The position numbers were made by a program, and so were the translations under genes. Under the pieces are notes generated by a model. The model had not been told where the DNA came from. It was given only the letters and a program-made list of their open reading frames with translations, and did not search any database. From a virus: 64,000 bases of DNA. Below are positions 16,741 to 56,827 of this stretch, one piece after another (position 1 is the first letter of the stretch; the number at the start of each line of letters is the position of its first letter). The stretch spans positions 1 through 64,000 of the IMG/VR virus record IMGVR_UViG_3300002026_000009. One strand, 5' to 3'.

Positions 16741-17020
16741 GTTGACGGAAACGTATTCTGGACGGCGGGGCAGTACCGCCCAGGTCCACCATAAAACACA
16801 CTACGGCACTGTCTTAGTTCAGTGTGGTTCGATTAAGTAGTGTGTTTTATATTGGGCCTGACACAGTTTCGACAGGGTAAAGAGTACTGATATGGACAAC
16901 TCGTCAGGAGTAGACGTTAAAAGCAAACTAAACTAACCGCAAACGACAGCGAGTTCGCCCTAGCCGCTTAAGGCTTGGCTGAGGTTTGACCCGTTACCTT
17001 ATTAACAAAAACGGGTCACT
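16741..17020 (+). ncRNA. ssrA: circularly permuted (two-piece) tmRNA gene
   Basis: The acceptor piece ends ...GGAC-GGCGG-GGCAGTA-CCGCC-CAGGTCC-A-CCA at 16793. A 12-bp hairpin spacer occupies 16795-16850. The coding piece starts GGGCCTGACACAGTTTCGACAGGG at 16853. The acceptor stem GGGCCTG/CAGGTCC has a G3:U70 pair. The tag ORF GCA AAC GAC AGC GAG TTC GCC CTA GCC GCT TAA (16939-16971) encodes ANDSEFALAA. The outer boundaries are uncertain. Confidence 0.75.
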
Positions 17021-17030
17021 AATTTCTCTC

Positions 17031-17059
17031 TTGAAGACGCTGGTTATCTTTGATATAAT
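17031..17059 (+). promoter_or_regulatory. promoter TTGAAG-N17-TATAAT
   Basis: Hexamers read directly. Confidence 0.55.
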
Positions 17060-18046: not shown

Positions 18047-18129
18047 GGAGTAGATGGAACAATGGCGTTCTAGCCGGCTGTAACCCGGTGGCCTCTGGCA
18101 GGTAAGTTCGATCCTTACCTACTCCACCA
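18047..18129 (+). tRNA. tRNA-Tyr (GTA)
   Basis: Acceptor GGAGTAG/CTACTCC, anticodon loop CTGTAAC, long variable arm, T loop TTCGATC, A73, CCA encoded. Confidence 0.85.
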
Positions 18130-18277
18130 ATTTTATTAGAAATCTTCTAGCAATAGACACTTGGGCATACTGGACGCAGTACATGAGGCTTGACAGCCTA
18201 CAAGTGGCCGATACGTAGACTAAAGCCCGGCAGGGTGATTAAGATGCGTAGTCGGGGGATTCCTAATAAGATTAGTC

Positions 18278-18361
18278 GGGAGAGTGGTGGAATGGCATAC
18301 ACAGGGCGCTTAAAACGCCCCGCCGCAAGGCATACGGGTTCGAATCCCGTCTCTCCTACCA
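18278..18361 (+). tRNA. tRNA-Leu (TAA)
   Basis: Class II. Anticodon arm GGGCG-CTTAAAA-CGCCC, long variable arm, T arm ACGGG-TTCGAAT-CCCGT, A73, CCA. Confidence 0.8.
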
Positions 18362-18366
18362 ATTAT

Positions 18367-18443
18367 GCGGATATGACGAAATAGGTAAACGTGTCACGCT
18401 TAGAACGTGAATTCTGGGGGTTCGAGTCCCTCTATCCGCACCA
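18367..18443 (+). tRNA. class I tRNA with anticodon TAG (formally Leu-CUA reader, identity uncertain)
   Basis: Perfect acceptor GCGGATA/TATCCGC, anticodon arm TCACG-CTTAGAA-CGTGA, 5-nt variable loop, A73, CCA. 77 nt. Confidence 0.7.
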
Positions 18444-18454
18444 AGTTTTATGCA

Positions 18455-18526
18455 GCAGTTAGTGTAGTGGAAGCACATGAGTCTGTGAAACTCATAGGAA
18501 CGGATCGTATCCGTACTGACTGCCCA
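18455..18526 (+). tRNA. tRNA-His (GTG)
   Basis: G-1 (18455) lies opposite C73. Acceptor CAGTTAG/CTGACTG, anticodon arm TGAGT-CTGTGAA-ACTCA, reduced D arm, T loop ATCGTAT, CCA. Confidence 0.75.
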
Positions 18527-18538
18527 AAGATAGTTAAT

Positions 18539-18613
18539 GGAGCATTCGTCTATCGGTTAGGACACCTGGTTTTCATCCAGATAAGAGGAGTTCGATTCTC
18601 CTATGCTCTTCCA
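18539..18613 (+). tRNA. tRNA-Glu (TTC)
   Basis: Acceptor GGAGCAT/ATGCTCT, anticodon loop TTTTCAT, T arm AGGAG-TTCGATT-CTCCT. Confidence 0.8.
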
Positions 18614-18642
18614 AATTTTTCAACAGCAACTAAAAGGCAAAC

Positions 18643-18771
18643 ATGAGCTACAATCGCGAACTGGAAACTGACAAGCAAGCTAAACAAACCTCGGACAAAA
18701 ATCTGAAGGCTGCAGCTAGTGAGCGACTGAAGAAAAACGCCGAGTGGAAAAAGCGTAATCAAGCTAAATAA
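18643..18771 (+). CDS. hypothetical small basic protein (42 aa)
   Basis: MSYNRELETDKQAKQ...KKRNQAK. Lies between tRNA genes. Confidence 0.3.
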   Translation: MSYNRELETDKQAKQTSDKNLKAAASERLKKNAEWKKRNQAK

Positions 18772-18778
18772 CCTACGT

Positions 18779-18873
18779 GCCACCATAGCTTAACGGTAAA
18801 GCTCCGGCCTTATACTCCGGCGATGGCTCTAGATTGGGGCATGATATAGGTTCGAATCCTATTGGTGGTACCA
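18779..18873 (+). tRNA. atypical tRNA, anticodon TAT (Ile-AUA type) with 25-nt variable insertion
   Basis: Acceptor GCCACCA/TGGTGGT, D arm GCTT-AACGGTA-AAGC, anticodon arm CCGGC-CTTATAC-TCCGG, extra hairpin at 18821-18845, T arm ATAGG-TTCGAAT-CCTAT, CCA. Confidence 0.55.
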
Positions 18874-18874
18874 A

Positions 18875-18985
18875 ATGAATAAACTAAAAACGCACTTGTT
18901 ACTAACAAGCATAATGTTATGCTGTATACTGTTTGCAGTGTGGTTCAACATCGTAGTGCTGTTTATTAGTTTTGTAAGTAATTAA
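18875..18985 (+). CDS. small membrane protein (36 aa)
   Basis: MNKLKTHLLLTSIMLCCILFAVWFNIVVLFISF. Confidence 0.3.
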   Translation: MNKLKTHLLLTSIMLCCILFAVWFNIVVLFISFVSN

Positions 18986-19061
18986 CGCGGGGTATGTCAG
19001 CGGCAGACGGCTGGGCTCATAACCCAGAGGTCGTGGGTTCGAGTCCCACCCACCGCAACCA
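18986..19061 (+). tRNA. tRNA-Met (CAT), initiator-like
   Basis: The 5' CGCGGGG and the anticodon arm CTGGG-CTCATAA-CCCAG carry three G:C pairs, as in fMet tRNAs. The 3' end is ...CGCAACCA. Confidence 0.75.
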
Positions 19062-19068
19062 AATAAAT

Positions 19069-19143
19069 GCATCGTTAGCTCAGAGGTAGAGTTCCTGATT
19101 TACATTCAGGCTGTCGGCAGTTCGATCCTGTCACGATGTACCA
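19069..19143 (+). tRNA. tRNA-Val (TAC)
   Basis: Acceptor GCATCGT/ACGATGT, anticodon arm CCTGA-TTTACAT-TCAGG, CCA. Confidence 0.85.
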
Positions 19144-19148
19144 AATAT

Positions 19149-19224
19149 CCGTCCGTGGTCTAATGGATAAGGCAAGGGACTTCTATTCCCTACGATATGG
19201 GTTCGACTCCTGTCGGGCGGGCCA
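19149..19224 (+). tRNA. tRNA-Arg (TCT)
   Basis: Acceptor CCGTCCG/CGGGCGG, anticodon arm AGGGA-CTTCTAT-TCCCT, G73, CCA. Confidence 0.85.
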
Positions 19225-19239
19225 ATAATTTAAAATACT

Positions 19240-19407
19240 ATGAACGTACTTGTTGTATCAAATCCAGAACTTGGTTGGGATTGTGTTATTGGTGTCTACG
19301 CTGACACACCACGCAATCGTGAACTACTGCAGTCCAAAGAAGAAAATGACGGGTATGTAATCACAGAGCGAGATCTAGAGCAGGACTACGAAGATTGTAC
19401 TGATTGA
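19240..19407 (+). CDS. hypothetical small acidic protein (55 aa)
   Basis: MNVLVVSNPELGWDCVIGVYAD... TGA stop. Confidence 0.4.
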   Translation: MNVLVVSNPELGWDCVIGVYADTPRNRELLQSKEENDGYVITERDLEQDYEDCTD

Positions 19408-19472
19408 TATTTGTAACTCAACTAACTTAAAGGAGAACATTATGCGATTGTGAACAACAACAGGAGCATAAT

Positions 19473-19832
19473 ATGTCTAGAACATACAAAGACAAAAAGT
19501 GGAAGCTACGTCACCCAGAAAATGAATATACATTTGGTGTCGAACGTGTAGCATATGAAGTACAGCGTAGAAACTGGAGCACAGGCGAACTGCTAGACGA
19601 GTACTCTACACGTTATGCATACTTTGATATTCCAGGTGCAAAAAAGAAAAAGCCTCGTCATGAGCATGGTGTGTGGAACTGGTGCAGGAATACGCCTAGT
19701 TGGTGGAATAAAATGACCAGTCATGTCCCAAAGCGTGCTAAGTGCCGTAATTGGGAAAAGACTCGTACGCTAGATAATCTTGACGAAACCTGTCCAGACT
19801 ACGGACGCAAGCCACACATTTACTACTATTGA
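19473..19832 (+). CDS. hypothetical basic protein
   Basis: ORF track entry. AGGAG RBS. TGA stop. Confidence 0.6.
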   Translation: MSRTYKDKKWKLRHPENEYTFGVERVAYEVQRRNWSTGELLDEYSTRYAYFDIPGAKKKKPRHEHGVWNWCRNTPSWWNKMTSHVPKRAKCRNWEKTRTLDNLDETCPDYGRKPHIYYY

Positions 19833-19842
19833 AAAAATTTAC

Positions 19843-19871
19843 TTGACTTTTGGCTGCATATGTACTATAAT
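19843..19871 (+). promoter_or_regulatory. promoter TTGACT-N17-TATAAT
   Basis: Hexamers read directly. Confidence 0.6.
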
Positions 19872-19901
19872 ATGTATGTGGTCAAAAATTATAGGAAAAA
19901 T

Positions 19902-20630
19902 ATGACAATAGGTATTTATAGGCTAATATTTAAAGGTACGGATAAAGTTTATATTGGTCAGTAGGTAAATATAAAGAATAGATATTCTGAGCACCTGCGT
20001 ACATTTAAAGAAGGAAGTGCATCTTGTAAACTGCAAGATGCATATAATTTATACGATATACCTAGCCTAGATATACTGTGTTAGTGTAATCTAACTGAGT
20101 TAGACTCACTAGAGAATGAGGCCATAGAACTTTTTGATAGTGCTAATAATGGGTTTAATACATTTACTCATGAAGGTGGGTCTATACGAAGTGCTGGTGG
20201 GCTAGACCACTGGAACTCGAAGTATCCTAAACGACTTATATTAAAAGTCTTTGCAGCTCTCATTAGATACAAAGACTTATCGTATGCTGCAATAGCTAGA
20301 AAGTTAAACACTTCTCCGTATTTAGTACACAATGTTGTATCTGGGAAGCATCATTTATGGTTGAAAGATTCATATCCAGGTAAATTTGCTATAATGTTAG
20401 AGCTTAAAGCCGGTAAAAAAGATAGAACTAAGAAAACAATAAGTACAGAATTAGGTAATATACCAGTACTTGTATCCCCATCAGGTGATTATTTCAAAGT
20501 ACCGAATATTCGACAGTTTTGTGTAGAGCATCCAGACTTTTGTAGTAACATAGATGCATCTAGATCGTCTTTAGGTAAAGTAATTAAAGGCACAAAGACT
20601 TCTCACAAAGGCTGGGTATTAGCCTCTTAA
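19902..20630 (+). CDS. GIY-YIG homing endonuclease, 2 in-frame TAG (19962, 20082)
   Basis: One frame reads MTIGIYRLIFKGTDKVYIGQ-TAG-VNIKNRYSEH...KGWVLAS, 243 codons with no TAA or TGA. The ORF track shows only the last third (20361..20630). Confidence 0.7.
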
Positions 20631-20638
20631 ATATTGTC

Positions 20639-20667
20639 TTGATTTTGTAAACCAAACCGTGTATAAT
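20639..20667 (+). promoter_or_regulatory. promoter TTGATT-N17-TATAAT
   Basis: Hexamers read directly. Confidence 0.55.
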
Positions 20668-20687
20668 TATTGTTTTAAAGGATAATT

Positions 20688-21647
20688 ATGCTCGGTTTCG
20701 CTTGTAAAATTAACAGTGCATACGATACAGCAGCTTCCGGGCTGAATATCAAGGGTACAACTCTTACATGGTTACGTGCTAACCCTGATAAAGCGTATAT
20801 CAAGCTATCTGACTTGTTGCGCGATAATCTCAAGGCATTAGAGGCTCAGATTGAGTTTATTGGTGCCCTGCCAAAGCAGCAGCGAATGTTTCGTATTACC
20901 AGTGACTTGCTTCCCGCATACACTACTGATGATTTTATGCCATTCTACTACCAAGATCATATCCAGCAAATACTGGAACATATACTTGGTCGTATTGGTG
21001 CTCGTGCTAGATAGTTAGGCATTCGCCTTTCAATGCATCCTGGCCAGTTCTGTGTATTAGCTAGCGATAATCCAGCGGTTGTAGAAAATTCTATTGCAGA
21101 GTTTGAGTATCACGCTGATATTATTCGTTGGCTAGGGTACGGTAAAACATTTCAAGACTTTAAGTGTAATATCCACATTGGTGGTAAACGTGGCCCTGCG
21201 GGACTGCGTGAAGCGTACTACCAGCTTAGTCAAACTGCACGTAACTGCATTACAGTTGAAAATCAGGAATTTACCTGGGGACTAGAGCATTGCCTAGAAT
21301 TGGCTGATATTATACCTACTGTATTCGATATTCACCACGACTGGATTTACAACGGCAAATATCGTACAGAAATTCCTCTAGACGTGCTAACTAGCTGGCG
21401 TGGGCTTCGTCCTACAATGCATGTTAGCTGTTCTAGAGTTCGTGAGCATGACGCAACGGCTATAGCTACCAAGCAAGCACTACGTGCTCATAGTGATTAC
21501 ATCTACGAGTCTGTGCTGGTAGACGAGCTACTGCCATGTTACCATGAACACTTTGATATAATGGTTGAGGCCAAAGAAAAGAATTTTGCTCAGCAACAGC
21601 TTGTCGATAGTTGGGTAGAAAAATTTGGATTTGACCCCAATGTTTGA
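20688..21647 (+). CDS. UV-damage endonuclease (UvdE family), 1 in-frame TAG (21012)
   Basis: ORFs 20688..21014 and 21033..21647 are in frame. Motifs FRITSDLLP, IRLSMHPGQF, NIHIGG, ENQE and DIHHD span the TAG. Confidence 0.75.
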
Positions 21648-21659
21648 TTACTGTATAAT
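21631..21659 (+). promoter_or_regulatory. promoter TTGACC-N17-TATAAT
   Basis: Hexamers read directly. Feeds the tRNA block at 21.8-22.4 kb. Confidence 0.55.
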
Positions 21660-21804
21660 TTATTTATAAATTGAAAGAGCGACTCATTATCCTTAAATGG
21701 TAGCGAGAAAGGCGCGTTTACTAGGATCGTAAAAACAACTAGACGGGCAGTGTATCAATGCTTAGTAATAATTTGATGCCGGTACCCATACGACAATGGG
21801 TTAT

Positions 21805-21880
21805 CTCTGGTTCGGTTAGCGGCTATACCTCTACGTTTGGGACGTAGCTTTCGTAGGTTCGAGTCCTACACCAGAGACCA
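21805..21880 (+). tRNA. tRNA-Pro (TGG)
   Basis: C1:G72 acceptor CTCTGGT/ACCAGAG, anticodon arm CTACG-TTTGGGA-CGTAG, CCA. Confidence 0.85.
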
Positions 21881-22061
21881 TAAGTAAATATCTTGCTAGT
21901 TCCATGTATTTGGAACCTTGCACTCCAGTGAAATAAGGGTACCCGGCCGGTATATCCCTAAAGCGGAGTAGTTCTAGTATAGCTAGCCTTTAGCGGGGTA
22001 GTGCAAAAGCTAGAGTATGCGTAATTTGACTACGTAGGCAGCAAACAGGATATTTAATTAT

Positions 22062-22136
22062 GGGCTATTAGTGCTAACGGGAACACGCCTGGTTTGCAAC
22101 CAGGAATTGACAGTTCGATCCTGTCATGGTCCACCA
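22062..22136 (+). tRNA. tRNA-Ala (TGC)
   Basis: G3:U70 acceptor GGGCTAT/ATGGTCC, anticodon arm CCTGG-TTTGCAA-CCAGG, CCA. Confidence 0.85.
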
Positions 22137-22331
22137 AAACCTACCTTAGGGTTCGTTGTCGCAACGGTTAGAGGCTAATACCTCAGGCGTCCGTGATCTA
22201 TATAGTCGTCACGTTAAACCTCTTTATGAGTGACCACAGCCGCCAAGCAGTGGGGTACAAAGGAACTATACGTATTATGTACGCGGTAGGAGCGAAATGC
22301 CTACGCTGGAGTCGTAACCAGCACTAATTCA

Positions 22332-22411
22332 GGAGGTAGGGACTGCACGGCGTGGTCGCCACACTGTCACTGTGGATATTCAGATGGGTTCAATTCCCAT
22401 TACCTTCGCCA
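22332..22411 (+). tRNA. tRNA-Asp (GTC)
   Basis: Acceptor GGAGGTA/TACCTTC, anticodon arm CCACA-CTGTCAC-TGTGG, G73, CCA. 8-nt variable loop. Confidence 0.8.
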
Positions 22412-22487
22412 GTTTAGCCGAAAAGGGTAGCTCCCTCCGTTATTACCACGAATAATAACTAGGCTTTCATCTTTCGTGGAGATTATA

Positions 22488-23213
22488 ATGAATAGTGGAA
22501 TTTACTCCCTTAAATGGGATTAGCAAGGTTTAATATATGTTGGCCTAAGCCAGGATATAGATGGCAGATTGAAAAGTCATATAAATATGTTACTAGGTAA
22601 CAGGCATACTAACTATAAAGTACAGAATGCTTTTAATAAATTTGGGCATCCAAGTACAGAAGTACTTGAATTATGTGACATATAGAAGCTAGCAGAAAGA
22701 GAAGTTTATTGGTGTAATAAACTAAATGCGCTAGGACCAAATGGGTTATGTATTGTTGAGCCTGGAATAGTAGGTTTTGGTACAAATAGCAACTATACTA
22801 AATATAGTAAATATCAAATACTAAAAGTATTTTCCTTGTTATACAATGGTCAAAAAAGTTAGACAGAAATAGAATAGATGACCAAAGTATAGTCTAGGAC
22901 TGTAAAAGATATTTCACGTGGTAATTAGCACTTATGGTTAAGGGAACAGTATCCCCAAAAATATGATTTAATGCTAAAAGCTGATAGAGCCGCTATAGGT
23001 ATTCAATAGAAATCCAGAACATTAAAAGGATACTTACTAACTCCATAGCTAGATGTCGTGCCTATACACAGTTATGCAGATTTTGTACGAAATATACATC
23101 CAGAACTGGATCAAAAGTAGATAAATACTATGGTCTAGGGTTTGGCAAGAGTTTTACGTGGCGAACGTAAAACTTATAAAGGGTATAGTAGAGCAGATGG
23201 AGTAGTCGCATAA
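22488..23213 (+). CDS. GIY-YIG homing endonuclease, 10 in-frame TAG
   Basis: 242 codons (MNSGIYSLKWD-TAG-QGLIYVGLSQDIDGRLKSH...YKGYSRADGVVA) with ten TAG and no TAA or TGA until 23211. The 3' end overlaps the suppressor tRNA. Confidence 0.6.
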
Positions 23214-23285
23214 CGGTATTGCAGGGGTCTCTAAAACCCCCGGTCAGAAATGGCCTTCTGAGTTCGACCCTCAGCTACTCCGCCA
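23199..23285 (+). tRNA. suppressor tRNA, anticodon CTA (reads TAG); Ser-type architecture
   Basis: Reads as GGAGTAG TC GCATAACGGTATTGC A GGGGT CTCTAAA ACCCC CGGTCAGAAATGGCCTT CTGAG TTCGACC CTCAG CTACTCC G CCA. It has a 3-bp D stem, a 17-nt variable arm, G73, and G2:C71, A3:U70 and C11:G24 pairs. Its arm lengths and variable arm match tRNA-Ser(GCT) at 27406. Confidence 0.85.
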
Positions 23286-23295
23286 AAAGAAAACG

Positions 23296-23577
23296 ATGAT
23301 AAAAGTACCTGATGAGTGGTTGCCACTAGCCAATGAGTTGTTAGCAGATTTAAATCTGCTGAAAAAACAAAAAGTATACGAGACACTAGAAGTCTTATGG
23401 ATAGTAGAAAAAGACAGGCACTTAAAAGTTGCCTATAGATTAGAGCCTGATGTTGATGAATTATATGAAGTAATCATGAACATCATTAAGTATTACGAGA
23501 AACATATGCAAGCTATTTCCTTTACCAAAACAAGTAATATCCAGGGTAATACTGGAGGAAGTAGCACAGCCTTTTGA
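23296..23577 (+). CDS. hypothetical protein
   Basis: ORF track entry. TGA stop. Confidence 0.6.
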   Translation: MIKVPDEWLPLANELLADLNLLKKQKVYETLEVLWIVEKDRHLKVAYRLEPDVDELYEVIMNIIKYYEKHMQAISFTKTSNIQGNTGGSSTAF

Positions 23578-23601
23578 TTTATAGACTTACTCTATAAACT
23601 C

Positions 23602-23626
23602 AAGGGGCCAATTGGCCCCTTTTTTA
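23602..23626 (+). terminator. intrinsic terminator AAGGGGCC-AATT-GGCCCCTT + T run
   Basis: Read directly. Confidence 0.7.
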
Positions 23627-23628
23627 TT

Positions 23629-23703
23629 GCCCCATTATCCTTAATGGCAGAGGTCTGCTTTTGTAATGCAGGTGTGTGTGTTCGATTCATACATGGGGCA
23701 CCA
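23629..23703 (+). tRNA. tRNA-Thr (TGT)
   Basis: Acceptor GCCCCAT/ATGGGGC, anticodon loop TTTGTAA, CCA. Confidence 0.8.
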
Positions 23704-23714
23704 GAATTTCTGTC

Positions 23715-23743
23715 TTGATTTACCAAAGCCTTTCGTGTATAAT
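23715..23743 (+). promoter_or_regulatory. promoter TTGATT-N17-TATAAT
   Basis: Hexamers read directly. Confidence 0.55.
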
Positions 23744-23767
23744 AGAGGCTTAAACAGTGAGAAAAAC

Positions 23768-23962
23768 ATGAATTACCGTAAGCGCAAAAAAGCTATTACC
23801 AAGAAGCTAGCGCTACAAGGTGTACGTTTAGCGTACAATCCTCTTAACCGACATGCAGGCAGCGAATATGAGTTTTACCTATTCCAATTGCGTGTTTTAA
23901 AAAATATGAAAAGAGCACTAAATGAGCGCAAAAAATCGAAAAAAGCTGCCAAAGCCGCGTAA
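23768..23962 (+). CDS. hypothetical highly basic protein (64 aa)
   Basis: ORF 23666..23962, trimmed to the Met after the tRNA and promoter. Confidence 0.5.
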   Translation: MNYRKRKKAITKKLALQGVRLAYNPLNRHAGSEYEFYLFQLRVLKNMKRALNERKKSKKAAKAA

Positions 23963-24049
23963 CATATTTGCGACTTTGGCATGTAAACGGGTTGCTGGTT
24001 CCCATACAAAACCATACAAATCACTTCGCGGTAGGCTAAATCGCGATAC

Positions 24050-24124
24050 GGAGGTATAACTTAACGGTTAAAGTACGGCACTTTTAATGCTGTAATCAGG
24101 GTTCGATTCCCTGTGCCTCCACCA
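24050..24124 (+). tRNA. tRNA-Lys (TTT)
   Basis: Acceptor GGAGGTA/TGCCTCC, anticodon arm CGGCA-CTTTTAA-TGCTG, CCA. Confidence 0.85.
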
Positions 24125-24165
24125 TATTTAAATGTATTGTTTAGTGCCTTTAAATATGGTAATGT

Positions 24166-24240
24166 TGGGGGTTAGTGAAATGGTTATCACCACGCACTTT
24201 GACTGCGTTATTTCAAGTTCGAGTCTTGAACCCTCTGCCA
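24166..24240 (+). tRNA. tRNA-Gln (TTG)
   Basis: U1 is unpaired and G73 is present, as in bacterial tRNA-Gln. Perfect D arm GTGA/TCAC. Anticodon arm ACGCA-CTTTGAC-TGCGT, CCA. Confidence 0.85.
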
Positions 24241-24253
24241 AATAAGGAAACGT

Positions 24254-24592
24254 ATGGAAAGACCAGACTGCTGGAAGATTGTTAAAATAACTGCTCCAAC
24301 CGGAGAAATACACTATCGTGTAGCAATGGGCTGGTACGGTGGTTATTTAGGTAGTGATAGCTGGCAGATGAATAGTGGAATTGCTAGCCATTACTTTACA
24401 AACGAGGATAAAGATGTTGTTTTTGTTGGCGTTAGTGGTAGCGAATATATATGTTCACTACACAATGAAGGTTTAAACGGCTACGTTTCAAGCGTGGTTG
24501 TTGGTTATAGTAAAAAACTAGCCAATATAGGTGCTAGTATTGAAGAAGTATTTTTTAGCGAATACTGCGTGTGTAGTTCAATGGTAGAATAA
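24254..24592 (+). CDS. hypothetical protein
   Basis: ORF track entry. The 3' end overlaps tRNA-Gly by 26 nt. Confidence 0.5.
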   Translation: MERPDCWKIVKITAPTGEIHYRVAMGWYGGYLGSDSWQMNSGIASHYFTNEDKDVVFVGVSGSEYICSLHNEGLNGYVSSVVVGYSKKLANIGASIEEVFFSEYCVCSSMVE

Positions 24593-24640
24593 GACGTTGC
24601 CAACGTTTGGACGAGAGTTCGATCCTCTCCACCCGCACCA
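24567..24640 (+). tRNA. tRNA-Gly (GCC)
   Basis: Acceptor GCGTGTG/CACCCGC (one U:C mismatch), anticodon loop TTGCCAA, CCA. Confidence 0.8.
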
Positions 24641-24641
24641 T

Positions 24642-24716
24642 GCTGGATAGACCGAGTGGCGAGGTACCGTCTTGATAAGGCGGCTGTAGATGGATCGTAA
24701 CCATCATCCAGTACCA
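24642..24716 (+). tRNA. tRNA-Ile (GAT)
   Basis: Acceptor GCTGGAT/ATCCAGT, anticodon arm CCGTC-TTGATAA-GGCGG, T arm GATGG-ATCGTAA-CCATC, CCA. Confidence 0.75.
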
Positions 24717-24725
24717 AAATAAAAT

Positions 24726-24804
24726 ACCGTATAGGCCGACAAGGTGTTAGGCAAATGGCTGTTAACCATTCTCAAGCTGGGTTCGATTCCTAGATACGGT
24801 GCCA
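24726..24804 (+). tRNA. tRNA-Asn (GTT)
   Basis: Acceptor ACCGTAT/ATACGGT, anticodon arm AATGG-CTGTTAA-CCATT, G73, CCA. Confidence 0.8.
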
Positions 24805-24811
24805 ATTAAAT

Positions 24812-24888
24812 CCCGATATAGCTCAAGTGGACTAGAGCGTGCGTGTGCACTGCGCAAGATGGTGGTTCGAATCCGCCTTGAGGGGCCA
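24812..24888 (+). tRNA. tRNA-like gene with defective acceptor stem (anticodon position GCA); possible pseudo-tRNA
   Basis: The D arm (GCTC/GAGC) and T arm (GGTGG-TTCGAAT-CCGCC) are perfect and the gene ends GCCA. Only 4 of 7 acceptor pairs form, and the loop GTGCACT is atypical. Confidence 0.4.
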
Positions 24889-25027
24889 AGAAAAAAGTAT
24901 CGTATAGGGAACATTGCCGAATACTTCACCCTGGACTGGGCGTCCATCGGAACCTATAGACCTTCTGCAGGGGGTTTATAACAGTGTTTATTTAACATTG
25001 TTATAAGTCAGGCAAAGAAATTTGCAC

Positions 25028-25056
25028 TTGCCTTGTTTCCTAAAACCCTGTATAAT
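25028..25056 (+). promoter_or_regulatory. promoter TTGCCT-N17-TATAAT
   Basis: Hexamers read directly. Feeds the 560-nt non-coding leader of rsr. Confidence 0.55.
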
Positions 25057-25069
25057 TATATCTTTAACA

Positions 25070-25276
25070 GCGACTAAAACAACACACTGTTGTAGCGAAA
25101 GTAAACTGCTTGGCGGCAGTTAAAATCAGTTACTTCAAACTATGATGGTCTGGGCTTGTAACCGGACGCCCCTCATATACGGTTAGTATATAATCCCTAA
25201 TGTAAGGCATGTTGTAGGTTAATGAACATGCTGAGCACTGATGCGGATATTCTCAATAGTGTGTTGCTTTAGTTGT
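25070..25276 (+). ncRNA. Y-RNA-like module 1 (long terminal stem)
   Basis: Positions 25070-25088 pair with 25258-25276 over 19 positions with one A:C mismatch. The interior contains CAGTTACTTC (25127) and the hairpins 25177-25191 and 25207-25232. Confidence 0.45.
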
Positions 25277-25283
25277 AGTGTTT

Positions 25284-25371
25284 AAATCGGTTACTTCTTT
25301 TTATTTGTTCTAAAAACGACTGGGTGTTCGATTCCCCGGAGGCCGCTGGTGCATGGGCCAATATCCGATTT
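25284..25371 (+). ncRNA. Y-RNA-like module 2
   Basis: Closing stem AAATCGG/CCGATTT, then TTACTTC, then a degenerate T-arm (GGGTGTTCGATTCCCC) and a D-arm-like GGCC-GCTGGTGCAT-GGCC. Confidence 0.4.
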
Positions 25372-25482
25372 TCCTGTTCTCAACTTTCTTCTTTGGTGTC
25401 TCGACCGTTACGTTCTCGTAATATAAAGACTTGATTTTAGGTAAACCGTCTCCCTAAAGCCAACCCTATTTTAGTAGTGTTA

Positions 25483-25586
25483 GAAACAGTTACTTCACTT
25501 TTAATGAAGAGGTCGGTGGTTCGAGTCCACCCAGGTTGGTCTCTAGCCTGTAGCTCAGTTGGATAGAGCGCTAAAATCTCTGTTTC
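25483..25586 (+). ncRNA. Y-RNA-like module 3 with permuted tRNA-like domain (YrlA-type)
   Basis: Closing stem GAAACAG/CTGTTTC. Order of elements: hairpin CTTCA-CTTTTAA-TGAAG, AGGTC, T arm GGTGG-TTCGAGT-CCACC, acceptor 3' strand CAGGTTG, cap GTCTC, acceptor 5' strand TAGCCTG, TA, D arm GCTC-AGTTGGATA-GAGC. Confidence 0.6.
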
Positions 25587-25621
25587 GTCTTGTTCTCTAA
25601 ATTCTTTTTTTAAAGGAAACT

Positions 25622-26932
25622 ATGTCTTCGATCAATCGCGTATCCCGTGTAGTTAATAAAACTTTCGAGGGTGCTGCTGCAAAACTAATTACTCCTGAAG
25701 CTAAGCTGAATCGTGTGGTTATGGCTTCCATGCTGTGGGAAGGACAATTTTACATCGACGGCCAAAAGTCGGCTGATGTAATTAAAGACCTTGTTGCTAA
25801 AGTCGACCCTAAGGTGGTAGAGTCTATTGCAATCAAGGCACGCGAAGCCATGAAACTTCGCCATGTGCCACTGTTCATTACCCGTGAACTGGCACGTATC
25901 GGCAAACTCTCACACGAGGTGCTAACTCGTGTTATCCAGCGTCCTGACGAATTGGGTGAGTTTGTATCAATGTATTGGATGGATAAGAAACAACCGCTGT
26001 CCAATCAAGTTAAACGTGGTCTAGCTAACGCTTTCCACAAGTTTAACGAATACCAGTTTGCTAAGTGGAATAAGTCTAGCGCAGCTGTGAAGCTCCGTGA
26101 TGTACTATTCCTAACCCACGCTAAACCTCGTACAGAGGGTGAGGCCGATCTCTTCAAGCGTATCGCTGATGAGAAACTGGAAACTCCAGATACTTGGGAA
26201 ACCGAGCTGTCTGGTGGTGCGGATAAAGGTGCTACCTTTACTCGCCTTATGAAGGAAAATAAGTTGGGTGCACTGGCATTCCTTCGTAACCTGCGGAATA
26301 TGGTACAGGCTGGAGTTGACGAAAGCCTTATCCGGGAATACGCTCGTGGTGTGAATACTGACCGTGTTCTTCCATTCCGCTTCCTTGCAGCAGCCCGCAT
26401 CGTTCCTCAATTCGAGGACATGCTGGAAAGCATGATGCTTCGTAGCCTTGAAAGCCACGAAAAGCTGCCAGGAAAAACCGTTCTGCTAATCGACGTTAGT
26501 GGCTCGATGTTCGGTACGAAAGTATCTGAAAAGAGCGATCTTGATCGTTTTGACGCAGCAGCTGCACTTGCTATTCTAGCTCGTGAAATCTGTGAAGAAG
26601 TAGAAATCTACTCCTTCTCGTACAACGCAGTTCGCGTTCCAGCCCGTCGTGGCATGGCACTGGTAGAGGCTATTCGCAACAGCCAAAACCACGGTGGTAC
26701 AGCAACAGGTAAAGCTGTTCGTAGCATTAACGCTAATGTTGAGTATACTCGCTGTATCATCTTCACCGATGAACAGTCGCATGACGTAGTACCTAACCCA
26801 ACAGGTATTGGTTATATCATCAACGTAGCTGCCTACGAAAACGGTATCGGTAACTCTAACTGGACTACCATTAGTGGTATGTCTGAAGCCGTTATCGACT
26901 ATATCCAGTTGTCTGAAAAGACAGTGGATTAA
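25622..26932 (+). CDS. rsr: Ro60-related protein (Rsr): TROVE + vWA domains
   Basis: 436 aa. The N-terminal part is TROVE-like. The vWA MIDAS motif LLIDVSGSM is present. AAAGGAAA RBS, TAA stop. Confidence 0.75.
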   Translation: MSSINRVSRVVNKTFEGAAAKLITPEAKLNRVVMASMLWEGQFYIDGQKSADVIKDLVAKVDPKVVESIAIKAREAMKLRHVPLFITRELARIGKLSHEVLTRVIQRPDELGEFVSMYWMDKKQPLSNQVKRGLANAFHKFNEYQFAKWNKSSAAVKLRDVLFLTHAKPRTEGEADLFKRIADEKLETPDTWETELSGGADKGATFTRLMKENKLGALAFLRNLRNMVQAGVDESLIREYARGVNTDRVLPFRFLAAARIVPQFEDMLESMMLRSLESHEKLPGKTVLLIDVSGSMFGTKVSEKSDLDRFDAAAALAILAREICEEVEIYSFSYNAVRVPARRGMALVEAIRNSQNHGGTATGKAVRSINANVEYTRCIIFTDEQSHDVVPNPTGIGYIINVAAYENGIGNSNWTTISGMSEAVIDYIQLSEKTVD

Positions 26933-27075
26933 AGACTAGAATTGATCCTTCTAGTCTACAACGCGTGATGCTCCAGGAACCACTTGCCTATGGTCGAGAG
27001 CTAGTAACCACACGGTAGTCAGTCCGGTTAAATAATGTTGGCTCTAAGCTTCGGCTTAGAAAAGTGCTTAGTGTA

Positions 27076-27116
27076 GTAACAGTTACTTCATTTTTGGTAT
27101 AATAAAAGCCTGTTAC
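27076..27116 (+). ncRNA. Y-RNA-like module 4 (stem-loop only)
   Basis: GTAACAG/CTGTTAC stem enclosing TTACTTC... Confidence 0.3.
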
Positions 27117-27272
27117 GCTTTTTCTAGCTCTTTTCTAAGCCATAGCGTATATTTTGATTACATCACTAACCACACTTCTAGTACCGCACAGTTGGGTGCA
27201 TGCAGGGTTCGAATCCCAGGGCAAAAACATCAAAATAGTTTTTCTTGGCTAATTTTTACAATCCTTAGCGTA

Positions 27273-27381
27273 TAAACAGTTACTTCTTAACCTCAATAGC
27301 CGTACCTGGGTTCGATTCCCAGCATCCCTAAACTGGGGTGTAATCTAATGGTAGGATTGGCTAACTAAAAAAGCCTGTTTA
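27273..27381 (+). ncRNA. Y-RNA-like module 5 with permuted tRNA-like domain (YrlA-type)
   Basis: Closing stem TAAACAG/CTGTTTA, then TTACTTC. T arm CTGGG-TTCGATT-CCCAG, acceptor CATCCCT-AAAC-TGGGGTG capped by a tetraloop, then TA and the D arm ATCT-AATGGTA-GGAT. Confidence 0.6.
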
Positions 27382-27405
27382 ATTTTTCTAGGATTACTTT
27401 ATATT

Positions 27406-27492
27406 GGAAGATGTGTTGCAAGGTGCGACATCGGTTTGCTAAACCGCCGTTCAGAAATGGGCTGATAGGTTCGATTCCTATATCTTCCGCCA
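27406..27492 (+). tRNA. tRNA-Ser (GCT)
   Basis: Class II. Acceptor GGAAGAT/ATCTTCC, anticodon loop TTGCTAA, variable arm CGTTCAGAAATGGGCTG, G73, CCA. Confidence 0.85.
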
Positions 27493-27505
27493 ACTAATAA
27501 ATATT

Positions 27506-27733
27506 ATGCACGACCCTAAATCGCTAGAAGCGTTCTTCTTAGAGTATATGCCTAGGACTAAAGAAGTTCTAGAGTCACTATGGGCTACAGATCGACGTGA
27601 GTTGTCCTAGGTTCTTCAAGAGTTTATGCGCGCAAGCGGAGAAAATTCTTGGATGTACCCGTATTTTTCCGATCTAGATTATTACACACGAACAGCACAA
27701 CATAAGTACACCAATCCCTGGGAAGTACTGTGA
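27506..27733 (+). CDS. hypothetical protein, 1 in-frame TAG (27608)
   Basis: MHDPKSLEAFF...RELS-TAG-VLQEFMRASG... The TGA stop overlaps the GTG start of the next gene. Confidence 0.45.
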
Positions 27734-27954
27734 GCAATATATCCACTGATTACGTCGCTAGTGATACCACTAGGCGACGTATTGTTGTTACTAGTCTCAT
27801 CCTTAGCTGGGCCATTATAGGCTGGCTAATTTTATACGGCAATCAATCTAATAGCCTACACGAATCGGCTTTAGCCTGGAGTTACGCGTACAATATTTTA
27901 GTACTATTTGCATATAGCTTTGGTACTATTATTAAAGACTACTTTAAGAAATAA
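27730..27954 (+). CDS. membrane protein (74 aa)
   Basis: ORF track entry. Two hydrophobic segments. Confidence 0.5.
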   Translation: MSNISTDYVASDTTRRRIVVTSLILSWAIIGWLILYGNQSNSLHESALAWSYAYNILVLFAYSFGTIIKDYFKK

Positions 27955-27955
27955 T

Positions 27956-28029
27956 ATCTCCTTAGTGTAATGGCAACACGTCGCGCTCCAAACGCGTTAA
28001 TCAGGGTTCGAGTCCTTGAGGGGATGCCA
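27956..28029 (+). tRNA. tRNA-Trp (CCA)
   Basis: Acceptor ATCTCCT/AGGGGAT, anticodon loop CTCCAAA, G73, CCA. Confidence 0.85.
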
Positions 28030-28035
28030 AAACCT

Positions 28036-28127
28036 GGAAAGTAGTGCAGCGGGGCTGGTCCTGCGACGAGCCTTGAAAACTCGGTTCTCAGAAATGGGAT
28101 GGGGTTCGACTCCTCTGCTTTCCTCCA
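28036..28127 (+). tRNA. tRNA-Ser (TGA)
   Basis: Class II. Acceptor GGAAAGT/GCTTTCC, anticodon loop CTTGAAA, variable arm containing CAGAAATGG. The D loop is long and position 73 is U. Confidence 0.7.
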
Positions 28128-28166
28128 ATTTTTAACCAGCGCCCACCGCGCAAAATTTAGCACATT

Positions 28167-28793
28167 ATGAGTAAAGATTCCAAAAGCATTGACCTTGATA
28201 ACATTGTTAGTGGAGGCTCTAATGTCTTTACTAAAACAGTTGCACGTGACTATAGCTTCTACCTTAGTGGAGAAATTCTAGAGCCTAGTGAATATATAGA
28301 GTGGTTTGATACTATTCGCACTGCTGGGCCCAACGACAGCGTAACCATTCACATTAATTAGATGGGTGGCAATCTAGATACAGCTATTCAGTTTATTCGT
28401 GTTCTAGGTGAGACTCAAGCAGAGGTTATTACTAGCGTTGAAGGTTCTTGCATGAGTGCAGCTACCATGATCTTTTTATAGGGTCATAGTCTACAGATTA
28501 CACCTTTTAGCCTTTTCATGTTCCACAACTATAGTGGAGGTGCCTTTGGTAAGGGCGGGGAAATGTACGACAACATTATGTTCGAACGTAAGTGGTCAAG
28601 TGAATTTTTACACCATGTTTACAAAGACTTCTTAACAGCAGAAGAAATTAATTCTATGCTAGATAATAAAGATATTTGGATGGGACATACAGAGGCGGAA
28701 GATCGCTGCCGTAAAATGATGAAGGCGCGTACCGCAGCAACAAAAGCTCAACAGTGTGAACTTGATATAGACGACGCAGATGACGCCAGTTAA
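28167..28793 (+). CDS. ClpP-like serine protease, 2 in-frame TAG (28359, 28479)
   Basis: ORFs 28167..28361 and 28518..28793 plus the piece between them share one frame. IHIN-TAG-MGG resembles ClpP INSPGG, GSCMSAA carries the Ser, and MFHNYSGGAFG resembles MIHQPxGG with the His. Confidence 0.7.
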
Positions 28794-28800
28794 TTAACAC

Positions 28801-28829
28801 TTGAATTGTCTGTTAAGTTTTGATATAAT
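28801..28829 (+). promoter_or_regulatory. promoter TTGAAT-N17-TATAAT
   Basis: Feeds the tRNA-Cys, Met and Arg block. Confidence 0.6.
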
Positions 28830-28838
28830 TATTCTTTA

Positions 28839-28913
28839 AATACAGTGGCCGAGCGGCGAGGCAAGTGATTGCAAATCACTATTATGTGGGTTCGAATCCC
28901 ATCTGTATTTCCA
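28839..28913 (+). tRNA. tRNA-Cys (GCA)
   Basis: Perfect acceptor AATACAG/CTGTATT, anticodon loop TTGCAAA, U73, CCA. Confidence 0.85.
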
Positions 28914-28914
28914 T

Positions 28915-28991
28915 AGTCAAGTAGCTCCAACGGTTAGAGTAACGGTTTCATACGCCGGCTGTTGTAGGTTCGAGTCCTACCTTGACTACCA
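28915..28991 (+). tRNA. tRNA (CAT): elongator Met or Ile2
   Basis: Acceptor AGTCAAG/CTTGACT, anticodon loop TTCATAC, T arm GTAGG-TTCGAGT-CCTAC, CCA. Confidence 0.8.
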
Positions 28992-28994
28992 AAT

Positions 28995-29069
28995 ACCTCG
29001 TTAGTACAACGGATAGTGCACTAGGCTACGAACCTGGGAATGTGAGTTCGATTCTTGCACGAGGTACCA
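28995..29069 (+). tRNA. tRNA-Arg (ACG)
   Basis: Acceptor ACCTCGT/ACGAGGT, anticodon arm CTAGG-CTACGAA-CCTGG, CCA. Confidence 0.85.
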
Positions 29070-29070
29070 T

Positions 29071-29196
29071 AAATAACCGCATACATCAGCTACAATGGAA
29101 CACCGATAGCCTATTACAAGTTCCGGATACGTAATAGGCAGGCCATGAAGAGTTAGAGCTGGCAGAAGTTTAAGCATTCAGTATGCGGTTATTTAT
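29071..29196 (+). other. 126-nt structured element closed by a 14-bp stem
   Basis: AAATAACCGCATAC (29071-29084) pairs with GTATGCGGTTATTT (29183-29196). An inner 9-bp hairpin GCCTATTAC/GTAATAGGC is present. The 3' arm covers the RBS and start of the next CDS. Confidence 0.4.
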
Positions 29197-29476
29197 GGCA
29201 AAAACATTTACATCTATTAAAAATCCAGCACTACAGCTAACTGACCAACTACCATTTGGTAAGTTTAAAGGCTGTAGAATTTGTGATATACTCGAGGACG
29301 ATTGGGAATATCTTAAGTGGATGAAGCAAAATACTAGCATTAACTTTAGCCGACCAGTACTTGACTCAATTACAGCGCGGTTTTCAGCTTGGGCAGATGA
29401 AACACACTATAACGAAGAAGTAGCCCCGTATCTTAACAATGATGCCGATATTGACCCAGAGGATGTACCATTTTGA
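29195..29476 (+). CDS. hypothetical protein
   Basis: ORF 29183..29476. Start at MAKTF. Confidence 0.55.
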   Translation: MAKTFTSIKNPALQLTDQLPFGKFKGCRICDILEDDWEYLKWMKQNTSINFSRPVLDSITARFSAWADETHYNEEVAPYLNNDADIDPEDVPF

Positions 29477-29700
29477 CTAAACGAGTATTTAAAACCGTAT
29501 CACTTAGCCCTAATACATCAACACAACGTAGTACTGAGTATATTCCTAGTCGCGTGACTTCTGGTGGTTCTACTGCTGCTAAGCCTGTAATGACGTATAC
29601 CGGACATGAAATGGTTGGCATTGCTATTATTCATAAAAGCTGCCTGCAACCTGTCTTTAGTAAAGAAGCAGCCGAAGATACCGCTAAAATGCGTAGATAA
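29473..29700 (+). CDS. hypothetical protein
   Basis: ATGA overlap. TAA stop. Confidence 0.55.
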   Translation: MTKRVFKTVSLSPNTSTQRSTEYIPSRVTSGGSTAAKPVMTYTGHEMVGIAIIHKSCLQPVFSKEAAEDTAKMRR

Positions 29701-29705
29701 ATAAA

Positions 29706-29779
29706 GCGTGGTTCGTTTAATGGTAGGACTTCTGCCTTCCAAGCAGATAGCAAGGGTTCGATTCCCTTACCCCGCACCA
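29706..29779 (+). tRNA. tRNA-Gly (TCC)
   Basis: Acceptor GCGTGGT/ACCCCGC, anticodon arm TCTGC-CTTCCAA-GCAGA, CCA. Confidence 0.85.
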
Positions 29780-29788
29780 AGGAAAATA

Positions 29789-30112
29789 ATGTATACATCA
29801 TATTATACTTATCTAGAAGAAACAAGTGTTCGCAGATCAAAGTATGCAGAACCAATTAACGATTTAGAACCCATGAGAACCAATCTTACAAACGATAACA
29901 TCGAAACCTACGTTCGTAAACACGCTTACATCGTAGCATCCATGTCCGATGCTGGTCTTAGCGTTGCCGAGGCTCCTGTAATTCATCCTACAATTATCGT
30001 AGCACGTGCAGAATGCCAACGTCTTGCTAAACTGAATCCTGGTAAAAACTTCATTGCCCTACAATTAGGCGCATTGGAGCGAGTAGCGTATCAGCCAAAC
30101 GTTTCAATTTAA
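29789..30112 (+). CDS. hypothetical protein
   Basis: ORF 29708..30112, trimmed to the Met after the tRNA (GGAAAA RBS). Confidence 0.55.
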   Translation: MYTSYYTYLEETSVRRSKYAEPINDLEPMRTNLTNDNIETYVRKHAYIVASMSDAGLSVAEAPVIHPTIIVARAECQRLAKLNPGKNFIALQLGALERVAYQPNVSI

Positions 30113-30116
30113 TCAC

Positions 30117-30145
30117 TTGATTCGTTGAAGTGTTTATTGTATAAT
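30117..30145 (+). promoter_or_regulatory. promoter TTGATT-N17-TATAAT
   Basis: Hexamers read directly. Confidence 0.55.
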
Positions 30146-30169
30146 TTATACTTCAACGGAGAAATTAAA

Positions 30170-30517
30170 ATGGAAAATATGCGTAAAATTGTTGTCCACG
30201 TTACTGCTGGTACTGGTATGGATAACTGGGAGTTCTACGAAGTAGACCCTAAGGTAGAGCGAGGCGTAATCGACAACTTTGCTGAAGAGGCCGCCATCGA
30301 ATGGGCAGATTCATATGGCATAGGCGACCCCGGCAATTACCCAGACGAGCAAGACTTCGAAGACGATGAAGATGGGTACTCTGATGCCATTGATGAATGG
30401 GAAGCAGCCAGCCACGACTGGGATCAAGTAGAAGGCTCATTCGAAGATTACGTTCCAGAAAAACACGATGGATACTCAATGACGGGTACTCCAGAGTTTC
30501 AACGCTTCTCTAGCTGA
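30170..30517 (+). CDS. hypothetical very acidic protein
   Basis: GGAG RBS before ATG 30170. The 3' end overlaps tRNA-Phe. Confidence 0.55.
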   Translation: MENMRKIVVHVTAGTGMDNWEFYEVDPKVERGVIDNFAEEAAIEWADSYGIGDPGNYPDEQDFEDDEDGYSDAIDEWEAASHDWDQVEGSFEDYVPEKHDGYSMTGTPEFQRFSS

Positions 30518-30579
30518 TGAGGTCATAGCAGTGGATTGAAAATCCATGGAAACAGGTTCGAGTCCTGTGGGAAGCACCA
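30504..30579 (+). tRNA. tRNA-Phe (GAA)
   Basis: Acceptor GCTTCTC/GGGAAGC, anticodon arm GTGGA-TTGAAAA-TCCAT, CCA. Confidence 0.8.
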
Positions 30580-56805: not shown

Positions 56806-56827
56806 AGTTTTTTAAATGGAGACTATT

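Follow-up and report, generated by a model that had tools for sequence, protein, structure and literature searches.

A TAG-rich homing endonuclease gene probably inserted beside a resident serine-type amber suppressor tRNA in a phage tRNA array

We analyzed a 64,000-nucleotide (nt) stretch of viral DNA (positions 1 to 64,000 of IMG/VR record IMGVR_UViG_3300002026_000009; hereafter the window) and focused on a GIY-YIG endonuclease gene that carries ten in-frame amber (TAG) codons and overlaps a tRNA gene with the anticodon CUA. The window is phage-like, has a G+C content of ∼41%, and contains 26 tRNA genes at 18047–30579, every one on the + strand. Within this array, the endonuclease gene occupies the spacer between tRNA-Asp and tRNA(CUA); a structured leader precedes it, and a small conserved open reading frame (ORF), orf93, lies directly 3' of tRNA(CUA) (Table 1). 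A contig of JGI 3300001765, MIS_1001755, is 99.9% identical to the window and represents the window's own population, and INPHARED holds no close DNA-level relative of the window among cultured phages. Suppressor-bearing relatives were found with orf93 homologues as the marker, and the relatives compared below (loci designated L plus a number) are short metagenomic contigs throughout. tRNA pattern scans of IMG/VR, JGI metagenomes, and GTDB genomes returned nothing, or chance matches without tRNAs. Fifteen IMG/VR relatives found through a TROVE protein were set aside as too distant and lacking the suppressor.

The endonuclease ORF (22488–23213) starts with ATG at 22488 and runs for 241 sense codons to a TAA at 23211–23213. 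TAG occurs in frame at codons 12, 66, 125, 130, 135, 147, 174, 187, 211, and 217, and the frame holds neither TAA nor TGA. Over the same stretch, frames +1 and +2 contain 12–13 TAA, 7–10 TAG, and 3–5 TGA (15–18 TAA or TGA in each). Thus, TAA and TGA are excluded from the frame, but TAG is not. A sequence-only reading of the window had reported the same ten TAGs and the same absence of TAA and TGA, and both translation and the raw sequence bear it out; its 242 codons include the stop. It also placed the start correctly, but the end that it gave, 23285, is that of the tRNA, and the ORF itself ends at 23213. The 15-nt overlap with tRNA(CUA) that it described is indeed there, at 23199–23213. Standard gene callers break the ORF into fragments.

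The predicted protein matches the GIY-YIG family PF01541 above the Pfam threshold (32.3 bits versus a cut-off of 22.6, E = 1.2e-7), and its residues 1–86 align with the catalytic domain of I-TevI (E = 1e-7). G4-I5-Y6, Y17-V18-G19, R27, H31, E72, and N85 align with I-TevI Y6, Y17, R27, H31, E75, and N90. These catalytic and motif residues are invariant or nearly so in 22 homologues, and the spacing within the GIY-YIG motif is in the expected range of 10–11 residues. None of the ten TAGs falls on any of the 51 conserved columns. In INPHARED, protein matches were limited to generic GIY-YIG endonucleases at 29–38% identity.

The ORF aligns ungapped, over 241 codons plus TAA, with orthologues from three relatives: L022 (95.5% nt identity to the window, the same 10 TAGs), L023 (68%, 7 TAGs), and L043 (68%, 8 TAGs). 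Positions 125, 174, and 211 are TAG in all four genes, and the remaining TAG positions depend on the lineage. Among the four, the ratio of nonsynonymous to synonymous substitution rates (dN/dS) is 0.07–0.15, with dS up to ∼2, and no internal TAA or TGA occurs in any. The low dN/dS and the lack of gaps, TAA, and TGA show that the gene is under purifying selection and that its TAGs must be read through, unlike those of a pseudogene. By these measures, the ORF appears to be a working GIY-YIG endonuclease gene with an I-TevI-type catalytic domain.

The adjoining tRNA(CUA) is 87 nt long and folds into a cloverleaf with a 17-nt variable region containing a 5-bp stem, a discriminator G73, and an encoded CCA end (Rfam tRNA model, 48 bits versus a cut-off of 29). 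Its variable arm closely matches the one in the window's tRNA-Ser(GCU), and the tRNA is unlike the 75-nt tRNA-Gln of the window. Across six lineages, G1:C72, G2:C71, A3:U70, C11:G24, G73, and the CUCUAAA anticodon loop are invariant, and 11 of the 25 base pairs show compensatory changes. In Escherichia coli, seryl-tRNA synthetase (SerRS) reads the long variable arm, G73, and pairs of the acceptor and D stems and ignores the anticodon, which is why the amber suppressor supD inserts serine. The E. coli-type serine identity set and the long class II arm are all present in tRNA(CUA). These elements make it most likely that the suppressor is of class II and serine type, which makes it the natural equivalent of E. 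coli supD. The relatives have a tRNA-Ser(UGA), to which the suppressor shows no special similarity, so that an origin from that tRNA is not supported.

Two further tRNA(CUA) candidates came up in the searches. A 17-mer scan led to L024 (IMGVR_UViG_3300028805_000183), an unrelated phage contig that is uninformative for the present locus; its different, 89-nt class II tRNA(CUA) at 5784–5872 (− strand) has the same anticodon arm, which suggests that long-arm amber suppressors also exist in other phage groups. At L007, ARAGORN called a tRNA(CUA) beside tRNA-Asp, which we took to be a false positive given its poor fold and the lack of an Rfam tRNA match.

Which amino acid does TAG encode? We summed Codetta-style log-odds over 27 TAG-aligned columns, with homologues taken from suppressor-free loci. 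Serine was the sole amino acid with a positive score (+13.7 bits); Asn scored −9.2, Glu −14.6, Tyr −54.5, and Gln −64.8 bits. Individual columns are telling as well. TAG65 of the ClpP-like protease sits at the Ser of a conserved INSPGG motif, and TAG35 of the GIY-YIG gene at 19860–20630 falls on the near-invariant Ser of YIGxS, a site that is encoded by a standard Ser codon in the L060 orthologue. At positions 7, 135, 136, 147, and 217 of the endonuclease, some orthologues use TCN or AGT and others TAG; these codons are two mutational steps away from TAG. Together, the tRNA features and the TAG-aligned columns make a reading of TAG as serine well supported.

We then compared the insertion site among the suppressor-bearing relatives. 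The inserted stretch, ∼22416–23198, consists of the leader and the ORF. It lies between genes, in the spacer between tRNA-Asp and tRNA(CUA), with both tRNAs intact and no intron or intein. Five lineages (L051/52, L053–55, L056, L057–59, and L060) have an empty locus with the order tRNA-Pro, Ala, Asp, a spacer of 6–8 nt, class II tRNA(CUA), orf93, and tRNA-Thr, and no endonuclease between tRNA-Asp and the suppressor. In L051, the spacer reads GATTTTT. One further lineage, L061–63, retains only a remnant, the last ∼58 codons of the endonuclease fused to the suppressor, in which TAGs 211 and 217 are kept. The locus is thus occupied in four lineages, empty in five, and a remnant in one, which corresponds to the usual life cycle of homing endonuclease genes. 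The distribution is patchy: orf93 of the occupied L023 is 67% identical to that of the window, and those of the empty L056 and L051 are 75% and 73% identical. In the relatives searched, no suppressor was found elsewhere than between tRNA-Asp and orf93. As five lineages carry the suppressor without the endonuclease, the latter appears to be encoded by a free-standing homing gene that came to occupy the Asp|suppressor spacer. By this comparison, the suppressor tRNA predates the insertion and has a lasting place in the tRNA array of the clade.

The 15-nt overlap recurs in L022 and L023. In the suppressor-free L044, another copy of the endonuclease family runs 15 nt into tRNA-Glu, an unrelated junction. 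The same run-in at a different tRNA indicates that the overlap is a by-product of the way this family inserts, with no special tie to the suppressor. Two details of the alleles may be added. The remnant (L061, 1322–1495, and likewise in L062 and L063) is 84% identical to the window, and tRNA-Asp is missing there. Positions 13–15 of the tRNA, which form the endonuclease stop in the window, read TAA in all endonuclease-bearing alleles and in the endonuclease-free L056, and TAG in the endonuclease-free suppressor alleles of L051 (4262–4350) and L053 (4909–4996).

TAG codons are unevenly distributed among the genes of the window. The four GIY-YIG ORFs contain 10, 2, 1, and 6 TAGs and the PDDEXK_15 ORF at 51583–52035 contains one; the 20 TAGs that the sequence-only reading had counted in five endonuclease genes are thus borne out, while its total of 34 for the window becomes 33–38, depending on where starts are placed. 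The GIY-YIG genes hold 19 TAGs in 1032 codons, whereas 85 other ORFs hold at most 19 in 15044 codons; the density is thus ∼15-fold higher in the GIY-YIG genes (odds ratio 14.8; p = 2e-13, Fisher test). Outside the endonuclease genes, TAG makes up ∼0.1% of codons. Put differently, TAG accounts for 10 of the 24 presumed Ser codons in ORF 22488–23213 versus ∼1–2% in other genes. Endonuclease genes also have a lower G+C content at third codon positions (0.25 versus 0.36 in core genes) and lower codon scores. Two structural-looking genes on the − strand, 60221–60715 and 62086–63867, contain one TAG each, which precedes the TAA or TGA stop by 13 and 20 codons; either these TAGs still terminate translation, or suppression gives short C-terminal extensions.

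The same contrast appears when copies of the endonuclease family are compared between relatives. None of 12 copies in suppressor-free relatives has an internal TAG (those of L026 and L031 appear to end in TAG), versus all 10 copies in suppressor-bearing contigs, with 1 to 11 each (Fisher p = 1.5e-6). This supports one of two explanations that the sequence-only reading had proposed, namely that the mobile endonucleases have adapted to, or are confined to, genomes that carry the suppressor. Suppressor-bearing copies hold TAGs whether or not they adjoin the tRNA: the L056 copy has 11 and lies ∼1.9 kb away. HNH endonuclease ORFs of L023, L051, and L053 contain 2–5 TAGs, and their non-endonuclease neighbours contain none, except for one L051 ORF with 1–2; the HNH_3 gene of L056 has none. 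At 8 of 9 IMG/VR loci, family copies reside in tRNA arrays, usually 63–80 nt 3' of a tRNA.

The insertion also includes a conserved leader. Over the 76 nt from tRNA-Asp to the ATG, L022 shows 100% and L023 95% identity to the window, although the L023 ORF reaches only 65–70%; the leader is thus better conserved than the proteins. The leader is predicted to form a three-way junction composed of a closing helix P0 (22416–19 with 22462–65), a small hairpin P1 (22425–27 with 22433–35), and a 7-bp hairpin P2 (22439–45 with 22453–59). The 7-nt loop of P2 (22446–52) is complementary to 22473–79, which abuts the Shine-Dalgarno sequence GGAG (22478–81). Over 12 loci, the 17 pairs are paired in 90.4% of cases, 12 of them show compensatory changes, and none of 500 shuffles reached the score; the covariation of P0 was read off the alignment rows. 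The motif CGAAAAGGGTAGCTCCC of the leader occurs once in the window. Leaders of this kind also occur at L023, L026, L028–L032, L043, L044 (two copies), L047, L051, and L056, other tRNA junctions included, in front of GIY-YIG ORFs and, in L051, of one HNH endonuclease ORF. An Rfam scan found no family matching the leader, and its single-sequence folding energy is no better than that of shuffled sequences (z from −0.7 to +0.1), so that the case for the leader is one of covariation. T4 endonuclease genes are known for RNA control of access to the ribosome-binding site, and the leader may act in the same way.

Taken together, these observations suggest, with a probability that we put at about 70%, that a homing endonuclease gene inserted beside a resident serine suppressor and that its TAGs are decoded as serine, such codons piling up in selfish nucleases. 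The gene would have entered the 6–8-nt spacer between tRNA-Asp and the suppressor together with its own ∼72-nt structured leader. The inserted ORF, lacking a stop of its own, would run into the tRNA until U13-A14-A15 spells TAA, giving the 15-nt overlap. SerRS would charge the suppressor, and the ten TAGs would be decoded as serine. Host release factor 1 would presumably compete at each TAG, so that translation would depend on the suppressor and its yield would be lowered by termination, keeping the endonuclease at a low level. Selfish nucleases need little protein and can be harmful; they would tolerate TAG and may even benefit from it, while core genes would largely avoid it. As a result, TAGs would build up in the GIY-YIG and HNH endonuclease genes of the whole clade, with a turnover of their positions, whether or not the genes adjoin the tRNA. 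The endonuclease would probably cleave the empty Asp|suppressor junction and be co-transcribed with the suppressor and the tRNAs of the array. A promoter-like site (21631) and a terminator-like hairpin (23602), both from consensus scans, suggest a single transcript of tRNA-Pro, Ala, Asp, the endonuclease, the suppressor, and orf93.

Several observations weigh against this interpretation. One TAG occupies the Asn of the PhoH motif DEAQN, another in L043 falls on the near-invariant Glu91, and TAG positions 12 and 187 align with Glu or Asp in homologues. The suppressor and the window's tRNA-Tyr have the same acceptor stem, so that a mixed identity is possible from sequence alone. These columns and this acceptor stem leave serine well supported rather than proven. 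Stop-codon usage is of little help: at most 2 of ∼67 confident ORFs, the two structural-looking genes at 60221–60715 and 62086–63867, may end in TAG, but suppressor-free relatives also rarely do so (0–15% in most loci). The lack of TAG terminators is thus weak evidence for a genome-wide reassignment, and we rejected stop-codon usage as proof of it because it does not discriminate. Ten TAGs would also result in a tiny yield of full-length protein unless suppression is efficient. Finally, the number of in-frame TAGs (10) equals that out of frame (7–10) and so does not decide between selection and tolerated drift.

How do other explanations fare? That the gene is a decaying pseudogene with TAGs as real stops is hardly credible. 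Homing endonuclease genes often degenerate, as the L061–63 remnant illustrates at this very locus, and standard gene callers do fragment the ORF; however, four lineages maintain it at dN/dS 0.07–0.15 without frameshift, TAA, or TGA and with all catalytic residues intact, TAG is the sole interrupter of the frame compared with 15–18 TAA or TGA in each other frame, and TAGs also lie within conserved motifs of the ClpP-like, PhoH, and UvdE genes. We consider it very improbable that the phage uses ordinary genetic code 15, with TAG read as Gln as in crAss-like and Lak phages. This reading appeals to the three closest of the full-length database homologues, P0001, P0002, and P0003 (loci L022, L023, and L043), which have Q at each TAG position, and to TAG positions 130 and 188, which align with CAA or CAG in orthologues. 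Yet the contigs encoding the three proteins have TAG in their DNA, and standard-code translation does not give the database proteins: the Q residues are there because gene callers assume code 15, an artefact that provides no evidence for Gln. Moreover, its class II structure, G73, and Ser-like variable arm set the tRNA apart from the window's tRNA-Gln; the log-odds also favour Ser over Gln (+13.7 versus −64.8 bits). Improbable, too, is the second explanation of the sequence-only reading, in which endonuclease and suppressor form one mobile unit, a recoding cassette that spreads TAG reassignment into new phage genomes. The overlap does put the endonuclease stop inside the tRNA, the pair is kept in four lineages at dS around 2, SegB-type homing co-converts flanking tRNA genes, which makes hitch-hiking of the tRNA mechanistically possible, and an array copy would have a ∼4% chance of sitting directly 5' of the one suppressor among 26 tRNAs. 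But relatives with the tRNA and without the endonuclease, which that reading had named as evidence against a cassette, are what the comparison of related phages revealed, five lineages having the suppressor at the same locus and L061–63 only a remnant beside it. The suppressor was never found at a new site. TAG-rich copies lie far from it (in L056, and at 19860, 52112, and 56816 in the window), and a suppressor-free relative shows the same overlap with tRNA-Glu.

A sharper version of our preferred explanation, insertion beside a resident suppressor, deserves more attention, although we hold it to be possible rather than likely. Here the TAG richness of the endonuclease would be positively selected as a timer or licence: the gene would stay silent until the suppressor accumulates, or be kept at trace levels, with the leader as a second lock. 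The high share of TAG among presumed Ser codons (10 of 24 versus ∼1–2% in other genes) speaks for it, as do TAG counts that remain high in diverged orthologues while positions turn over (3 shared, 7 and 4–5 lineage-specific), the occurrence of the pattern in both GIY-YIG and HNH genes, and a covarying leader able to pair with the Shine-Dalgarno region. A similar argument, that of delayed expression, was made by Borges et al. for an intron endonuclease of Agate phages that is rich in recoded stops (TGA; bioRxiv 10.1101/2021.08.26.457843). However, in-frame TAGs are as frequent as out-of-frame TAGs, and their absence from conserved columns (0 of 10) is expected for tolerated changes; both observations fit relaxed selection. 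The HNH_3 gene of L056, moreover, lacks TAG. Extended further, the idea becomes unlikely in our estimate: the suppressor would mainly license selfish nucleases (GIY-YIG and HNH) that are TAG-rich by selection, which would confine their translation to settings and times of ample suppressor, with physical coupling and a leader lock in addition. Because the endonuclease stop lies inside the tRNA, the endonuclease mRNA would lose its stop when RNase P matures the suppressor and would become a target of the transfer-messenger RNA that the phage encodes (tmRNA; 16683–17046), and the covarying leader would mask the ribosome-binding site as a further lock.

Table 1. Features of the endonuclease–suppressor locus and of other genes discussed, with positions in the window.
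Feature	Position	Strand	Remarks
Promoter-like site, TTGACC-17-TATAAT (11/12), 5' of tRNA-Pro	21631–21659	+	Consensus match only
tRNA-Asp(GUC)	22332–22411	+	Left flank of insertion site; ARAGORN; Rfam tRNA 34.7 bits
Structured 5' leader of endonuclease gene (predicted)	22416–22487	+	Conservation and covariation
GIY-YIG homing endonuclease gene, free-standing, 241 codons + TAA, 10 in-frame TAG	22488–23213	+	
Overlap, 15 nt	23199–23213	+	Last four sense codons of endonuclease (GVVA) + TAA = tRNA positions 1–15
Amber suppressor tRNA(CUA), class II, serine-type (most likely), CCA encoded	23199–23285	+	ARAGORN; Rfam
orf93, small conserved ORF directly 3' of suppressor	23296–23577	+	
Terminator-like hairpin after orf93 (8 bp, 6 G-C, then T run)	23602–23621	+	Consensus scan
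Second GIY-YIG endonuclease gene, 2 TAG	19860–20630	+	
Third GIY-YIG endonuclease gene, 1 TAG	52112–52810	+	
Fourth GIY-YIG endonuclease gene, 6 TAG	56816–57727	+	
PDDEXK_15 phage endonuclease, 1 TAG within domain	51583–52035	+	PF24608, E = 2e-30
ClpP-like protease, 2 TAG	28167–28793	+	TAG65 at Ser of INSPGG
tRNA-Ser(GCU)	27406–27492	+	Like suppressor in variable arm and G73-CCA end

Other features of the window were noted in passing. The tmRNA gene (+ strand) is of the permuted, two-piece type (RF04321, 123 bits; RF01850, 108 bits) and was missed by ARAGORN; several relatives encode a tmRNA too. Within the tRNA array lies a gene (25622–26932, + strand) for a TROVE/Ro60-like protein, which has a vWA domain and is 46–65% identical in all retrieved relatives. 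The gene for a family A DNA polymerase is split (42027–45543, + strand) into an ORF at 42027–43745, matching Pfam positions 9–214, and an ORF at 45175–45543, matching positions 286–378; the 301-codon ORF between them (43983–44888) has a low coding score and may be a further mobile insertion. Among the tRNAs, tRNA-Ile(UAU) at 18779–18873 is unusually long (95 nt), and Rfam gives a weak tRNA-like match (32 bits) at 24812–24885, where ARAGORN made no call.

The locus resembles several known systems and differs from each. In the case of I-TevI, the td intron endonuclease, an RNA hairpin covers the ribosome-binding site and thereby delays translation. The endonuclease described here shares the I-TevI catalytic domain (PDB 1MK0/1LN0; residues 1–86), including the GIY and YVG motifs, R27, H31, the Glu (E75/E72), and the Asn; it differs from I-TevI in being encoded outside introns, in the unrelated sequence of its C-terminal DNA-binding region, and in the recoded stops of its gene. 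SegB of phage T4 is likewise a GIY-YIG nuclease encoded between tRNA genes of a phage array and present or absent among related phages, although the likeness is limited to the fold of the catalytic domain. Ten TAGs, a presumed dependence on a suppressor, a 15-nt overlap with a tRNA, and a structured leader set the present gene apart from SegB, which recognises a TψC motif of tRNA genes and co-converts, or drags along, flanking tRNA genes (PMC2330249).

The suppressor, for its part, has the body of a tRNA-Ser with a CUA anticodon, as do the serine-inserting E. coli supD (serU) and T4 psu1+, which are laboratory mutants of normal tRNA genes. Unlike them, the suppressor described here is natural, is conserved at one locus in at least ten phage lineages, and lies beside genes that would need it. 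In crAss-like, Lak, and Agate phages (TAG to Gln, TGA to Trp), phage suppressor tRNAs also read in-frame stops that are concentrated in a subset of genes; here, by contrast, the amino acid is probably Ser, recoding is sparse, the enriched genes are selfish nucleases rather than late or lysis genes, and the source is not a gut phage. Neither a theta nor an HDV-like ribozyme was detected here. A survey of 180 phage suppressor tRNAs found the isotypes Gln, Trp, Ile, and Tyr and no Ser (PMC10879173), and the literature that we searched, with incomplete coverage, contains no report of TAG-to-Ser recoding in phages: the recoding papers in it give only Gln and, in the case of TGA, Trp or Gly. Stop-codon recoding and suppressor tRNAs of phages are already known, as are homing endonucleases in tRNA arrays. 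The present case differs in serine as the apparent amino acid, in the concentration of the recoded codon in selfish nucleases clade-wide, and in the leader.

If TAG is indeed read as serine, these phages would have a natural TAG-to-Ser code, and the database sequences of this clade are probably wrong at every TAG, since pipelines translate it as Gln. The leader may represent a novel regulatory RNA for the endonuclease genes of phages. The empty, occupied, and remnant states define a candidate homing site and make the biology directly testable. If our explanation is true, it would provide a clean natural case in which mainly selfish endonuclease genes, and not late genes, use a reassigned stop codon. 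Such a case would be relevant to the question of why suppressor tRNAs persist in phages and to the early spread of a new sense codon, which would begin in genes that lose little by inefficient decoding.

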